From the NCBI RefSeq assembly GCF_045037415.1, contig NZ_CP173438.1: 64,000 nt of DNA; one strand, written 5' to 3'. Shown here piece by piece: positions 9,001-18,000 of this stretch (position 1 is its first letter; each line of letters begins with the position of its first letter). A program made the position numbers. Origin of the DNA: Escherichia coli. Lineage in GTDB: Bacteria > Pseudomonadota > Gammaproteobacteria > Enterobacterales > Enterobacteriaceae.

Positions 9001-12000
9001 CGAAAGAGGGCGAGAAATATGTTCCGCCAGAGGGGCAATCACTGCGCGAACATATTGACGGACTTTGGCCGGTATTAACGCGTTCTACCGAAAACACCGA
9101 AAAATGGGATTCTCTATTACCGCTGCCAAAGCCTTATGTCGTGCCAGGCGGACGTTTTCGCGAGGTATATTACTGGGACAGTTACTTCACCATGTTAGGA
9201 CTTGCCGAAAGCGGTCACTGGGATAAAGTCGCGGATATGGTGGCCAATTTTGCTCATGAAATAGACACTTACGGTCATATTCCCAACGGCAACCGCAGTT
9301 ACTATTTAAGCCGCTCGCAACCGCCCTTCTTTGCCCTGATGGTAGAGTTACTGGCGCAGCATGAAGGCGACGCCGCGTTGAAACAATACCTGCCGCAAAT
9401 GCAAAAAGAATATGCTTACTGGATGGACGGTGTTGAAAACCTGCAAGCCGGACAACAGGAAAAACGCGTTGTAAAACTTCAGGATGGTACCCTTCTCAAC
9501 CGCTACTGGGACGATCGCGATACGCCACGACCAGAGTCATGGGTGGAAGATATTGCCACTGCCAAAAGCAATCCGAATCGACCTGCCACTGAAATTTACC
9601 GCGACCTGCGCTCTGCCGCTGCGTCTGGCTGGGATTTCAGCTCGCGCTGGATGGACAATCCGCAGCAGTTAAACACCTTACGCACCACCAGCATCGTACC
9701 GGTCGATCTGAACAGCTTGATGTTCAAAATGGAAAAAATCCTCGCCCGCGCCAGCAAAGCTATCGGAGATAACGCGATGGCAAACCAGTACGAAACGCTG
9801 GCAAATGCCCGTCAAAAAGGGATCGAAAAATACCTGTGGAACGATCAACAAAGCTGGTATGCCGATTACGACCTGAAAAGTCATAAAGTGCGCAATCAGT
9901 TAACCGCGGCCGCCCTGTTCCCGCTGTACGTCAATGCGGCAGCGAAAGATCGCGCCAGCAAAATGGCGACGGCGACGAAAACACATCTGCTGCAACCAGG
10001 CGGCCTGAACACCACGTCGGTGAAAAGTGGGCAACAATGGGATGCGCCAAACGGCTGGGCGCCGTTGCAGTGGGTCGCGACAGAAGGATTACAAAACTAC
10101 GGGCAAAAAGAGGTAGCGATGGACATTAGCTGGCACTTCCTGACCAATGTTCAGCACACCTATGACCGGGAGAAAAAGCTGGTGGAAAAATATGATGTCA
10201 GCACCACCGGAACAGGGGGCGGCGGTGGCGAATATCCATTACAGGATGGCTTTGGCTGGACCAATGGCGTGACGCTGAAAATGCTGGATTTGATCTGCCC
10301 GAAAGAGCAACCGTGTGACAATGTTCCGGCGACGCGTCCACTCAGTGAATCAACAACACAGCCGCTAAAACAAAAAGAGGCGGAACCTACGCCTTAACTT
10401 TACTGTATATCGAGCAATGCCATTACGTGCATAAAATTGGCATTGCTCTTTCTTCATCACGAAATACCACTCTTTCTACGGTCTATGCCTTTATTTTCTT
10501 TTATTAGAGAAGATTTTAATTTTATTTTATCAACTTGTTAATCATCACACCTCTATTTATATTTTCCCCCACTCCCCATTCTCCCTGACAATTTTCTTGT
10601 GGAACAAAGTGTTATTTAAGAAACAAGCAAATCATTCTGTCTCTTTAGACAAATTTTGACATCAAACATGATCTTTTTCGCTATATGTGTAAGTATATAG
10701 CGGTTTTAATTATCAGGATATTACTTATGTCACTAACCAGACGGAGGTTTACACAGATTCTTGCGTCGACATTGTTCCTGCATCATCTGCCGTCCTTTGC
10801 ACAATCAGTCAAATTCTGGGCCTCACTGACGCTTCCCGAAGCCCAACACATTACACGCATCGTCAGCGCAGGCGCGCCCGCCGATTTACTATTGCTGGCT
10901 GTCGCGCCAGAAAAAATGGTCGGTTTTTCCTCTTTTGATTTTGCCCGTCAGGCATTAATTCCATTGCCAGAGCACATTCGCCAGTTCCCCAGGCTGGGAC
11001 GACTCGCCGGGCGCGCCAGCACACTCTCGCTGGAAGGGCTTATGGCGTTACATCCCGATTTGGTCGTTGATTGCGGCAATACGGATGAAACCTGGATCTC
11101 CCAGGCACGGCAGGTTAGCGAACAGACACAAATACCCTGGTTATTGCTTAACGGGAAACTGGAACAATCAGCAGAACAGTTAACAACGCTTGGCAAAACG
11201 TTAGGCGAAGAGCACCGCGCCGCAGAACAAGCCAATCTCGCCAGCCGCTTCGTTGGTGAAGCTCAGGCATTCGCCACCTCACCCGCCGCTAATCTCAGCT
11301 TTTATGCTGCGCGCGGTCCTCGAGGGCTGGAAACGGGCTTACAGGGTTCGTTGCATACCGAGGCGGCGGAATTATTAGGTTTGCACAACGTCGCGCAAAT
11401 AGCCGATCGCCACGGTCTGACACAGGTTTCCATGGAAAATCTCCTGCGCTGGCAGCCGGATATTATTCTGGTTCAGGAGGCCGTTACTGCAGATTTTATT
11501 CGTCGTGATCCTCTCTGGCAGGGCGTGAAAGCGGTTGCGGAACAACGCATCTTATTTTTAAGTGGCCTGCCCTTTGGCTGGCTGGATGCCCCGCCGGGAA
11601 TCAACCGTCTTCTGGGATTACGCAGACTTCACGCCTGGCTGGATCCCGCCATCAATCGCCAGTTTAAAAGTGACATGCAGCATTACGCCCAACTGTTCTG
11701 GCATTGTTCACTCAGTGACGCCGACTATCAAAAATTGGTGGCGAGCTAATGAGAACCGTAAACGGATGTATTTTGCTGCTGGCAGCTATCAGTATCACTT
11801 TTGCCGCCGTAAGTGGGGCTTATCATCTCGATATGCAGCAACTGCTGGCGCTCATTCTTCGTCAAGAAAATGTTCCTGTGCAGGAACAAATTGTCTTCTG
11901 GCAAATCCGCGTGCCGCGTATTCTTGCTGCGCTGTTTCTGGGCGCGGCGCTGGCAGGGGCCGGAACCACCTATCAGGGAATGTTCCGTAATCCCTTAGTG

Positions 12001-15000: not shown

Positions 15001-18000
15001 GGCTCCCCACTGCACGCTGGCTCTGACCGGCGGAATTAATCTGACAACACTCAAAAATTACCTCGACTGCGGCATTCGCCTTTTTATTACCTCCGCGCCT
15101 TATTACGCGACACCAGCTGACATTAAAGTCAGTCTGCAACCCGCAGCCTCTATTTAATTCTTTGTTAAACGGAATTTATTCTATGAGACTCAAAAAACGT
15201 TATCTCTGCACAGCATTATCACTTGCCTTTACCCAGCAGGCCGTAGCGGCTCAGGAGAGTGACACGCTGACCGTATGGTCCAGTCCGGTATCATCAACGA
15301 CGACCACCGTTCTCGATCAACCCACCATGAAGGCCCTGGATAAACAGAATGTCGCTCAGGCATTAAGTGTCGTCCCCGGCGTGGTGCTGCAAAAGTCAGG
15401 TAGCCGCAACGAAGAACAGGTCAAAGTTCGTGGCTTTGATAGTCGTCAGGTGCCGGTCTATTTCGACGGTGTGCCCATTTATGTTCCCTATGACGGCAAC
15501 CTCGATCTGGCGCGGATTCTGACCAACAATTTGGGGGCAGTTGAAGTTTCCAAAGGGTATTCGTCGCTGCTTCAGGGGCCTAATCAGATGGGCGGAGCCA
15601 TTAATATCACCACCCAGAAGCCAACAAAACCTCTGGAAGCAAGTCTGGGATATCGCCAGGGATGGAGCCGTAGCCAGGACAATGCCTACGATATGCATGC
15701 TTCATTTGCCGCCAGCAGCGATCTGGGGTATTTGCAAGTCAGCGGTAGCCAGCTAAAGCAGGATTTTCTCGGCCTGCCGCATGGTGTAAATAATGATATT
15801 GCAGGCAAACACGGCAAGATGATTAATTCATCGGCTGATGATAAACGCGGCATTGTGAAGCTCGGTTTTACACCACGCGAAAACGATGAATACACATTGA
15901 CTTACATTAAGCAGGATGGTGAAAAAGATAACCCGCCATACAGTGGAAATAGTGGTCAGAAATCACGCTACTGGCAGTGGCCAGAGTATGACAAAGAAAG
16001 TTTTTATTATCAGGGAACGACCCAACTAAACGATCGTTTTACCCTGAAAAGTCGGCTGTATCGCGACACCTTTGAAAATACGCTAATGATGTACAACTCG
16101 CTGGCTGATTTGAAAAATAAAAAAGGCAGCTACAGCCATTATTCCGATTACAGCGACGGTGCCGGGTTACAACTGGCAGCCGATGTGCGTGAAAACGATC
16201 TGCTGTCGTTTGCCGTTAACTGGAAAGATGACGTACACCGGGAAAAAGGTGCGCCGCACGCCGCTTACGATCGCTATGAAGATCGTACCTGGTCGCTCGC
16301 CAGTGAATATCAATGGGCTGCTGCCGATAATGTCGATGTCGTGGCTGGAATCAGCTATGACTGGCGCGATAGCGTAGAAGCGAAAAAACATGAGAAAGAT
16401 GGCAGTATCACCCATTATGACGACAACAATCAGTCAGCTTTTAACTGGCAGGTGATGGGGAAATACCACTTTGCCAATGAAGACACGCTGGCGCTTTCGT
16501 ACTATGACCGCACACGCTTTCCGACGCTGAAAGAACGCTATACCACGTCCAAACCTGCGTATAACCAGATAGCGATTGTTAACCCGCAGCTCAAGCCGGA
16601 ACGCGCGCGCGGGGTGGATTTAACCTGGAATGGTGCCTTCACGCACGACTGGGGATTTGAGGTCAGCGTTTACTATAACCGGGTGAGTGATGCCATCCTC
16701 TCGCACAATATCGATGCCGATACCATTCAAAATCAGAACAGCGGCACGGTGGATTACAGCGGTCTGGATGCCGGTATTAAGGGGAAAATCAGCAATATAC
16801 TGGATGTAGGATTGAGCTACGCCCTGATCCACGCTGATGCCAAACGCAAAGACATCGGCAAGATAACCGATCTGCCAACGCAGACAATGACCGCATGGAT
16901 GACTCTCAAACCGTGGGAGCCGTTAAGCGTAACGCTGTCGGAAGAGGCGCGTTCCTCCAGCTACAGCAACAGTGACGGTTCACAAAAAGCCGCCGGTTTT
17001 GCGGTGACTCACATTCGAGCCGATTACACCTTAGGTCATGGCTTCAGCGTTAATGCGTCGGTCAATAACCTGTTTGATACCAAATATGCCTACAGTGAAG
17101 GGTTTATTGAAGAAGGTCGCAATTTCTGGGCAGGTATCGAGTATACGTTCTGATGTGAAAGCGGATAGCGGCATCTGTATCGCTATCCGCCTTATGAAAA
17201 TCTTATTCTCTTCGCAGGAGGCGGAATACGCCCAGCACCAGGATAGCGCCCACCACCGCCACCAGGAAGCTGTGCAAATTAAAACCGCTGATGGAGCCGC
17301 CAATGCCAAACATGGTCGCCAGCCAGCCGCCGACCACCGCACCGACTATCCCAAGAATACAGGTCAGGAAAAATCCACCACCATCTCGCCCCGGCATGAT
17401 TAGCTTGGCGATAATGCCGGCTATCAGGCCAAAAATAATCCAGGCAATAATTCCCATGTTCAGGCCCTCGTTTCGATGAATCGGACGCAAGAAATGCTTA
17501 CGTCAACGCTCTAAGTATAGGCAAGGGCGGGATCGATGCTGGGCATATGTCGGCTGATTTAAGAACAACATGTAAAAAATATTCGCGCATTTGTATTAAG
17601 TTTTGTTAACTGCGACCGATAAACCAAAGACAGTTTGTCAGTCAGGAGTTTTTCCGCGTGAGTCATTACCATGAGCAGTTCCTGAAACAAAATCCGTTAG
17701 CCGTCCTGGGCGTGTTACGCGATTTGAACAAAGCCGCAATTCCTTTGCGTATCAGCTGGAATGGCGGGCAGCTGATCAGCAAAATACTGGCAATAACTCC
17801 GGATAAACTGGTGCTGGATTTCGGCAGCCAGGCCGAAGACAACATCGCCGTGCTAAAGGCGCAGCACATTACCATTACCGCCGAAACTCAGGGTGCGAAA
17901 GTCGAGTTTACTGTTGAACAACTACAGCAGAGTGAATACTTGCAGCTTCCGGCATTTATTACCGTACCGCCTCCCACCTTATGGTTTGTACAACGACGCC

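Follow-up and report, generated by a model that had tools for sequence, protein, structure and literature searches.

A 2020 review of molybdenum in pathogens names only ModABC, the sulfate transporters and MolBCA as routes of uptake and makes no mention of TonB (PMC7759655). ModABC, a type I ATP-binding cassette (ABC) importer, uses a class II binding protein and lacks an outer-membrane part of its own. MolABC of Haemophilus influenzae (HI1470-HI1472) combines a class III binding protein, a FecCD-type permease and an ATPase, and modD (HI1473) adjoins molABC (PMC3928620). A TonB-dependent receptor, a class III binding protein and a type II importer occur together in BtuB-BtuFCD and in the Fur-regulated Fec, Fep, Fhu and Chu systems. 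The subject of the present study is a six-gene cluster of Escherichia coli at positions 10727-17153, on the + strand of a 64,000-nucleotide (nt) stretch of contig NZ_CP173438.1 (assembly GCF_045037415.1; the whole stretch is termed the window). It lies between treA and ymgE and encodes a class III periplasmic binding protein, a permease, an ABC ATPase, an S-adenosylmethionine (SAM)-dependent methyltransferase, the phosphoribosyltransferase-family protein ModD and a TonB-dependent outer-membrane receptor. The same flanks (ymgE, treA), size and gene names identify it as the prrA-modD-yc73-fepC locus of uropathogenic E. coli (UPEC) CFT073, of O157:H7 and of avian pathogenic E. coli (APEC), which is described as "possibly mediating iron uptake" by Ye & Xu (2001), as cited in PMC12928451. 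That label covers four of the six genes, and in the literature found the assignment to iron comes without regulatory or functional evidence. In PMC12928451 the region is termed GR9, runs from ymgE to treA over 6382 bp and is complete in APEC O1, IMT5155, RS218, IHE3034, 78-Pyelo, CFT073 and LF82.

Comparison with the described systems reveals a mixture of features. The cluster is like MolABC in its class III binding protein, FecCD-type permease, ATPase and link to modD, but MolABC has neither a TonB-dependent receptor nor a methyltransferase, the proteins share only 25, 40 and 37% identity (binding protein, permease and ATPase) and the pocket-region motifs differ. With the modABC/ModE regulon it shares an operator consensus immediately upstream of the ribosome-binding site of the first gene and the expected derepression in molybdenum starvation, whereas of the ModABC transporter itself only the ABC ATPase fold is homologous. 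It resembles the Btu, Fec, Fep, Fhu and Chu systems in its receptor, binding protein and importer, but has no cobalamin riboswitch and no Fur box and carries two extra cytoplasmic enzymes in the operon. Taken from sequence comparison, the system appears to unite a TonB-dependent chelate-importer architecture with MolABC-like inner-membrane parts and ModE control. The operon is very likely under the control of ModE and its role is probably the acquisition of molybdenum or tungsten. The ModE operator, the relationship to MolA and the ancestral (non-island) status of prrA-modD-yc73-fepC come from the present analysis; a full-text literature search returned no link of the cluster, or of a TonB receptor beside ModD, to ModE or molybdate, an earlier regulon prediction (Studholme & Pau 2003, RegPrecise) being possible.

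A predicted ModE operator in the leader

The leader contains a palindrome at 10679-10702 (assigned to neither strand), CGCTATATG-TGTAAG-TATATAGCG, which ends 24 nt 5' of the ATG and is predicted to be a ModE operator. It departs by one mismatch from the ModE consensus CGnTATATA-N6-TATATAnCG, given for E. coli as ATCGNTATATA-N6-TATATANCGAT (PMC545781), and the orthologous operator in O157:H7 and in strain 98205 matches the consensus perfectly. The operator of K-12 modA, CGTTATATT-GTCGCC-TACATAACG, has a like architecture and ends 18 nt before the modA ATG. When the upstream regions of 11 genera or species are aligned, conservation is confined to a TTGAY motif, the 24-nt box and the ribosome-binding site with the ATG, and the rest has diverged. 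A ModE box stands 5' of 44 of the 45 orthologous binding-protein genes, usually 17-45 nt before the ATG, and, as a positive control, the E. coli-type modA of a Photobacterium locus (L077) is preceded at ~30 nt by a perfect box. In Proteus, Morganella, Providencia, Pectobacterium and one Serratia (H1w), a second ModE box follows modD and stands ~45-190 nt before the receptor gene (loci L029-L038, L041, L047-L048, L050-L051, L054 and L057-L064); the modD-receptor gap is longer in these loci than the 25 nt of E. coli, which is without a second box. A weak ModE-like box (3 mismatches) is also located upstream of molA in the Pasteurellaceae loci L074 and L075.

Given that a simple terminator scan flags 10678-10703 as a hairpin followed by TTTTAATTAT, the palindrome might be read as a chance AT-rich inverted repeat or as an RNA hairpin (an attenuator or terminator) and not as an operator. 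This is highly improbable for three reasons: first, such boxes are rare by chance, as the palindrome is the sole consensus match in the window at no more than 3 mismatches where 0.12 are expected, and boxes with no more than 1 mismatch number 52 in 1.51 Mb of related loci against 0.05 in shuffles, 47 of the 52 lying within 300 nt upstream of a binding-protein, receptor or methyltransferase gene. Second, both the position and the sequence of the palindrome are conserved across genera. Third, the free (N) positions of the half-sites vary independently (CGA...GCG in O157:H7, CGC...TCG in Citrobacter youngae), and this non-compensatory variation is expected of a protein operator rather than an RNA hairpin, in whose predicted stem just 3 of the 11 pairs would be G-C.

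Since the box lies too near the ATG for a promoter downstream of it, the promoter would overlap the box or lie upstream, and bound ModE should repress; the position of the predicted operator, as at modA, points to repression. A simple promoter scan returned nothing convincing at the operator position. The N6 spacer (10688-10693), which ModE is expected to leave unconstrained, is nearly invariant across the Enterobacteriaceae loci as TGTAAA, which hints at a further constraint, for instance an extended -10 (TGn + AAATAT) lying within the operator. Twenty-four nucleotides downstream of the operator, the first gene most likely starts at 10727, where the ATG is preceded at a distance of 8 nt by the ribosome-binding site AGGA (10715-10718, + strand; CAGGA is kept in the upstream alignment) and agrees with the RefSeq call. 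The start at 10685 given in the first-pass annotation is merely that of the longest open reading frame (ORF) and falls inside the operator.

The same annotation had described the leader as holding only weak Fur-box-like matches. As regards Fur this was accurate, the best match being 13/19 and reached or exceeded by 110 of 500 shuffles, which is not above chance; the ModE operator was overlooked, and it is this operator that shifts the reading of the operon from iron to molybdenum. The leader has no Rfam match at E <=1, the cobalamin and molybdenum cofactor riboswitches included. Between 8000 and 19500 the single Rfam match is the Chlorobi-1 small RNA at 17731-17792, inside ycgR (19.2 bits against a gathering threshold of 50, E 0.22), which is at chance level.

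The remaining conserved island of the upstream alignment is the motif TTGAY-N4-nnCAW at 10656-10669 on the + strand (TTGACATCAAACAT), a probable -35 element and/or degenerate FNR-type site that is offered as a lead only. It scores 7-9 out of 10 against TTGAT-N4-ATCAA, and a score of at least 8 arises in ~5% of random 66-nt windows. The gap between motif and operator is fixed at 9 nt in Escherichia, Citrobacter, Raoultella, Enterobacter, Klebsiella and Symbiopectobacterium, whereas the spacing in Proteus differs. On weak evidence, an FNR-like site could be centred near -41 if the extended -10 (TGTAAGTAT) sits in the middle of the box, and a true FNR site together with a mid-box -10 would imply anaerobic activation in addition to molybdate repression. 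A firm assignment to FNR was rejected, given the degenerate right half and the different geometry in Proteus.

Components of the operon

Gene coordinates were taken from the RefSeq annotation of an identical ST131 genome (window position = locus position + 7299), and families were assigned with Pfam and NCBIfam profiles, the latter at their curated cut-offs. All six ORFs are co-directional on the + strand and no frame is disrupted in the window. The gene of the class III (cluster A) binding protein (10727-11749; PF01497) overlaps that of the FecCD/BtuC-type permease of a type II ABC importer (11749-12729; PF01032) by 1 nt in TAATG, and the permease gene overlaps the ATPase gene (12726-13484; PF00005; the 'fepC' of the literature name) by 4 nt in GTGA. 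After a 9-nt gap follows the gene of the class I SAM-dependent methyltransferase (13494-14306; Methyltransf_31/12/25), presumably the 'yc73' of the literature name, which overlaps modD (14303-15157; TIGR01334, QRPTase_N/C), encoding a NadC-like type II phosphoribosyltransferase, by 4 nt in ATGA; 25 nt further on begins the receptor gene (15183-17153; Plug and TonB_dep_Rec), the PrrA of the literature. The tightly coupled, co-directional TonB-dependent cluster of six genes with these domain types, as first annotated, is therefore borne out by Pfam, NCBIfam and RefSeq.

The binding protein begins MSLTRRRF..., a Tat-type leader (twin-arginine translocation; TRRRF) in which the RR pair is invariant and the consensus RRxFL is found in 17 orthologs; the twin-arginine-like leader noted at first pass is real and the protein is predicted to be Tat-exported. 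A sequence search of the PDB returned 4pag (1.2e-26), an uncharacterised Sulfurospirillum protein, and then MolA/HI_1472 (1e-7), while Foldseek with the AlphaFold 2 (AF2) model (predicted local distance difference test, pLDDT, 86.6) returned 4pag (4.7e-22) and then MolA 3psa (1.9e-15), at template-modelling (TM) scores of 0.66-0.68. By sequence and by fold, MolA ranks ahead of all siderophore, haem and B12 binders, and this H. influenzae class III molybdate/tungstate binder appears from these comparisons to be the closest characterised relative. Against a true MolA ortholog (locus L074; 2e-163 to HI_1472), the identity is 25% over 232 residues with a pairwise E of 8e-12. The permease and ATPase identities of 40 and 37% given above likewise refer to the MolB and MolC orthologs of L074; the best NCBIfam match of the permease is BtuC, at 242.7 bits and below its cut-off.

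The Yersinia Yiu system (YiuABC-YiuR) is alike in joining a receptor to a class III ABC importer without biosynthesis genes. It was considered as a homolog and rejected: YiuA gives no sequence match and ranks structurally below MolA, and YiuR is a CirA/IrgA-type receptor in a Fur-regulated system (PMC5683015).

The receptor has a signal peptide, PF07715 and PF00593 domains, a C-terminal Phe (...EYTF) and a TonB-box-like motif, DTLTVWS, 3 residues after the predicted cleavage site, without a FecA-type N-terminal signalling extension; these features point to TonB-dependent uptake. It belongs to no curated NCBIfam family, with the siderophore, haem and B12 receptor models all weak and far below cut-off. 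Weak matches of the components to iron-siderophore, haem and dicitrate family models, together with database names and the literature label, speak for the reading that the cluster is an iron-chelate or haem uptake system, to which the ModE-like palindrome would be irrelevant or secondary. This is improbable: the iron-family scores are far below the curated cut-offs (FecB 31.7 against 320, TonB-siderophore 127.3 against 223.5), the Fur-box match is no better than in a shuffled leader, the ModE box is conserved amid diverged upstream DNA, ModD is linked to molybdate transporters and the nearest characterised binding protein binds molybdate. The iron reading is backed by nothing beyond generic family resemblance, and the hint in the first-pass annotation at a cargo other than a siderophore is judged right.

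The methyltransferase and ModD, whose possible nature as disrupted pseudogenes had been raised at first pass, are intact and translationally coupled, and their collinearity extends over more than 12 genera. The GCGPG SAM motif of the methyltransferase and its D88 show no variation among 18 orthologs; the AF2 model (pLDDT 88.9) matches solely generic class I small-molecule methyltransferases in Foldseek (TM ~0.5) and the best NCBIfam model, CpaM, reaches 43 bits against a cut-off of 180, such that the fold is uninformative as to substrate. A protein cluster at 90% identity that contains the methyltransferase also holds ModD sequences and is represented by a ModD protein; this is probably a clustering artefact of overlapping genes or fused gene calls.

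ModD scores 501.9 bits against TIGR01334 (cut-off 178.85) and 135.7 bits against the NadC model, below the cut-off of 198.4. It has the same two-domain fold as NadC and retains most of the catalytic residues but belongs to a separate family: compared with the quinolinic acid phosphoribosyltransferase (QAPRTase) of M. tuberculosis, R139/K140, H161/R162, E201 and D222 are kept, R105 appears as K and the equivalent of K172 is an invariant Phe. The catalytic roles of these positions are those described for the M. tuberculosis enzyme. This pattern suggests that ModD is catalytically active as a phosphoribosyltransferase but uses another substrate. In Yersinia alsatica, Pasteurellaceae and Photobacterium, modD lies directly 3' of genes for modA, a molybdenum-type permease and an ATPase, and TIGR01256 and TIGR01581 exceed their cut-offs in these modABC-linked loci. 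In Zymomonas, the nif island contains modD together with modE and two TonB-dependent transporters (PMC8594446). In the Ferrimonas loci L069 and L081, standalone modD is directly preceded by a CobC-like gene of the alpha-ribazole-phosphatase family, and downstream of modD in the Photobacterium loci L067 and L070 are genes for a TehA-like tellurite-resistance/dicarboxylate transporter and a carbonic anhydrase; both sets of neighbours are possible hints to the chemistry of ModD. ORFs of 680-712 residues before modD in Neisseriaceae and Lonepinella, considered as receptors, are RecG and Pta, so that modD stands alone there.

Nature of the cargo

The ModE box, the linkage of ModD to molybdate transporters, the kinship with MolA and the lack of a Fur box or riboswitch together point to molybdenum rather than iron or B12, and the cargo suggested by these comparisons is molybdenum or tungsten. 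In the mechanism proposed, the six genes would form a single operon transcribed from a promoter overlapping the ModE operator. When molybdate is plentiful, molybdate-bound ModE would occupy the operator and block transcription, as at modABC, and when molybdenum is scarce the operon would be expressed. The TonB-dependent receptor would then carry some form of molybdenum (or tungsten) through the outer membrane, the Tat-exported, MolA-related class III binding protein would hand it to the MolBC-like type II ABC importer, and the cytoplasmic methyltransferase and ModD may work on either the imported species or a small molecule involved in molybdenum handling.

Several points weigh against this proposal. 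Free molybdate is small enough for porins, which leaves the need for a TonB-dependent receptor unexplained, and the usual cargo of type II importers paired with TonB-dependent receptors is a large chelate or cofactor. The family motifs RGxxGLETGxxGSxHTEA and PFGWLDAPPGxNR of the binding protein align without identical residues in MolA and, given this difference and an identity of only 25%, oxyanion specificity cannot be transferred from MolA, which itself binds molybdate weakly (Kd, the dissociation constant, ~100 uM, as quoted in PMC3928620). The methyltransferase of an O157:H7 strain (Z1816; L086, 3201-4013, equivalent to 13494-14306 of the window) has a nonsense codon at Trp214, and 196 of 2135 complete genomes with the cluster (~9%) contain the exact 61-mer bearing this stop, so that this gene is dispensable there. 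All public annotation and literature label the system as iron uptake, the cluster proteins being named in public sources as iron/hemin transport components (for example 'iron complex outermembrane receptor', or 'iron ABC transporter substrate-binding protein' as the RefSeq name of the binding protein in the identical ST131 genome). Finally, the molybdenum cargo and ModE control are both predictions from comparison of sequences and folds. In the same O157:H7 strain, treA is also annotated as frameshifted and the other five cluster genes are intact.

Given that the architecture and the two enzymes would suit a larger molybdenum complex or cofactor, the cargo could instead be an organic molecule that bears or is related to molybdenum, for example a complex of metallophore and molybdate, or molybdenum cofactor or pterin from gut microbes or the host. 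Import would then proceed as for B12, with remodelling or stripping of the cargo by the methyltransferase and ModD once it is in the cytoplasm, and regulation by ModE would be unchanged. The combination of receptor, class III binding protein and BtuC-like permease (BtuC being the best NCBIfam match) is that of the B12, haem and siderophore systems; two small-molecule enzymes are translationally coupled in a transporter operon and are paired even without the transporter; ModD keeps most phosphoribosyltransferase catalytic residues; and the CobC-like gene before modD in the two Ferrimonas loci recalls the activation of the corrinoid lower ligand by CobT/CobC. Nevertheless, an organic cargo is considered unlikely: ModD is mostly attached to ordinary modABC, with neither a receptor nor a methyltransferase, suggesting that it serves molybdate itself, no ligand has emerged as a candidate and the Ferrimonas link comes from two related genomes. 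To our knowledge, no bacterial uptake of molybdenum cofactor has been described. The usual attachment of ModD to plain modABC argues for an oxyanion cargo.

Distribution and ancestry of the locus

The full-length cluster is present in 2139 of 5426 complete E. coli genomes (39%) and is replaced by ycgY, a 622-bp segment, in 3171 (58%); the two states together account for ~98% of these genomes, a clean dimorphism. The cluster is thus accessory within E. coli, as the first-pass annotation had it, and real, although as a find it had already been named prrA-modD-yc73-fepC in the literature on extraintestinal pathogenic (ExPEC) and enterohaemorrhagic (EHEC) E. coli (PMC12928451). Its supposed insertion between treA and ymgE, on the other hand, is contradicted by the site shared with sister taxa, the ordinary G+C content and a fossil in K-12. 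E. albertii and ~10 Citrobacter species also have the six-gene unit between treA and ymgE, and in Raoultella, Enterobacter and Intestinirhabdus it adjoins treA. The cluster proteins (83-94% and 71-85% identity) are about as conserved as the flanking TreA, YcgR, EmtA and LdcA, the G+C content of 0.50-0.56 is similar to that of the flanks and the ORF survey of the window found no integrase, insertion sequence or other mobility genes at the cluster. Homology to K-12 resumes at 17130, within the receptor gene, where K-12 (L002 3722-3745, equivalent to 17130-17153 of the window) keeps GCAGGTGTCGAGTATACGTTCTGA, the last 7 receptor codons and the stop with one substitution. K-12 likewise retains the hairpin downstream (GGATAGCG-N10-CGCTATCC, 17163-17188, no strand assigned), which lies between the convergent receptor gene and ymgE and is possibly their shared terminator. 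This receptor 3' fossil implies that the ycgY state is derived and arose via 622 bp replacing 10399-17129 of the window; by these comparisons the cluster appears ancestral and the K-12 state a deletion or replacement. A horizontally acquired genomic or pathogenicity island was rejected, given the normal composition, the lack of mobility genes and the same site in E. albertii and Citrobacter.

A ModD-anchored scan with one genome per species yielded 80 loci. The collinear six-gene unit was found in Escherichia, Citrobacter, Raoultella, Klebsiella indica, Enterobacter, Symbiopectobacterium and Serratia, and further in Proteus, Pantoea, Affinibrenneria, Erwinia, Pectobacterium, Morganella and Providencia; neither modABC nor modE was found beside the unit in the Enterobacterales loci. 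Reduced loci also occur: three in Edwardsiella (L024, L044, L049) have the methyltransferase-ModD pair alone behind a ModE box, one in Leminorella (L053) has the pair with no box detected and one in Intestinirhabdus (L026) has methyltransferase, ModD and receptor next to treA and behind a perfect box. These loci indicate that the methyltransferase and ModD form a module separable from the transporter.

Loss from 58% of E. coli genomes and the methyltransferase pseudogene of one sublineage might suggest that ModE control is real and that the operon is a molybdenum-sparing response importing a substitute nutrient or metal, or else a decaying relic with little function. Other repressor regulons, namely that of Zur and those of the molybdenum-repressed alternative nitrogenases, include substitutes besides uptake. 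Such a reading is nevertheless very improbable for two reasons: first, the six genes are intact and collinear across five families (Enterobacteriaceae, Morganellaceae, Erwiniaceae, Pectobacteriaceae and, with Serratia, Yersiniaceae) at 44-94% protein identity, which implies long-term purifying selection. Second, E. coli physiology offers no obvious substrate for molybdenum sparing.

Some single records depart from the general pattern. Affinibrenneria salicis has two apparently identical six-gene units (L042, L043) ~770 kb apart on one scaffold, with the box at an unusually long distance, 252 nt, from the binding-protein gene, and this could be a duplication or an assembly artefact. In E. coli GCA_012923105.1 (L085, 6881-9043), a local deletion variant, the receptor is fused to YcgR in a protein of 720 residues (Plug, barrel, PilZN, PilZ) and ymgE is missing. 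A contig of 3168 bp in a metagenome-assembled genome labelled Collinsella sp. (L004) carries a methyltransferase and a ModD 98-99% identical to those of E. coli and has almost certainly entered the bin as contamination from E. coli. Of the matches to the cluster or to its flanking DNA among E. coli genomes, between 8 and 12 fall on records labelled as plasmids.

In the inflamed gut, the expansion of Enterobacteriaceae is driven by molybdoenzymes (formate dehydrogenases and the reductases of nitrate, dimethyl sulfoxide, trimethylamine N-oxide and tetrathionate), and the use of tungstate to poison this molybdoenzyme-based advantage is being explored. If molybdenum or tungsten is the cargo, 39% of E. 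coli would possess a second, energised route for its uptake, and models of molybdenum limitation and of tungstate treatment would change. Carriers include ST131 and O157:H7 and, per PMC12928451, CFT073, APEC O1, RS218, IHE3034 and the adherent-invasive E. coli (AIEC) LF82; many Citrobacter, Proteus, Providencia and Morganella species also carry the cluster. A more ambitious proposal, which is speculative and rather doubtful, is that this is the first dedicated TonB-dependent outer-membrane pathway for molybdenum in enterics, perhaps for a complex or cofactor-like cargo remodelled by both enzymes in the manner of corrinoid salvage, retained in ExPEC, EHEC and AIEC and lost from K-12-like commensals. 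Should the assignment to molybdenum or tungsten hold, a 25-year-old "iron uptake" label propagated through genome annotations would be corrected, and the orphan ModD family and its partner methyltransferase would gain a tractable genetic context.

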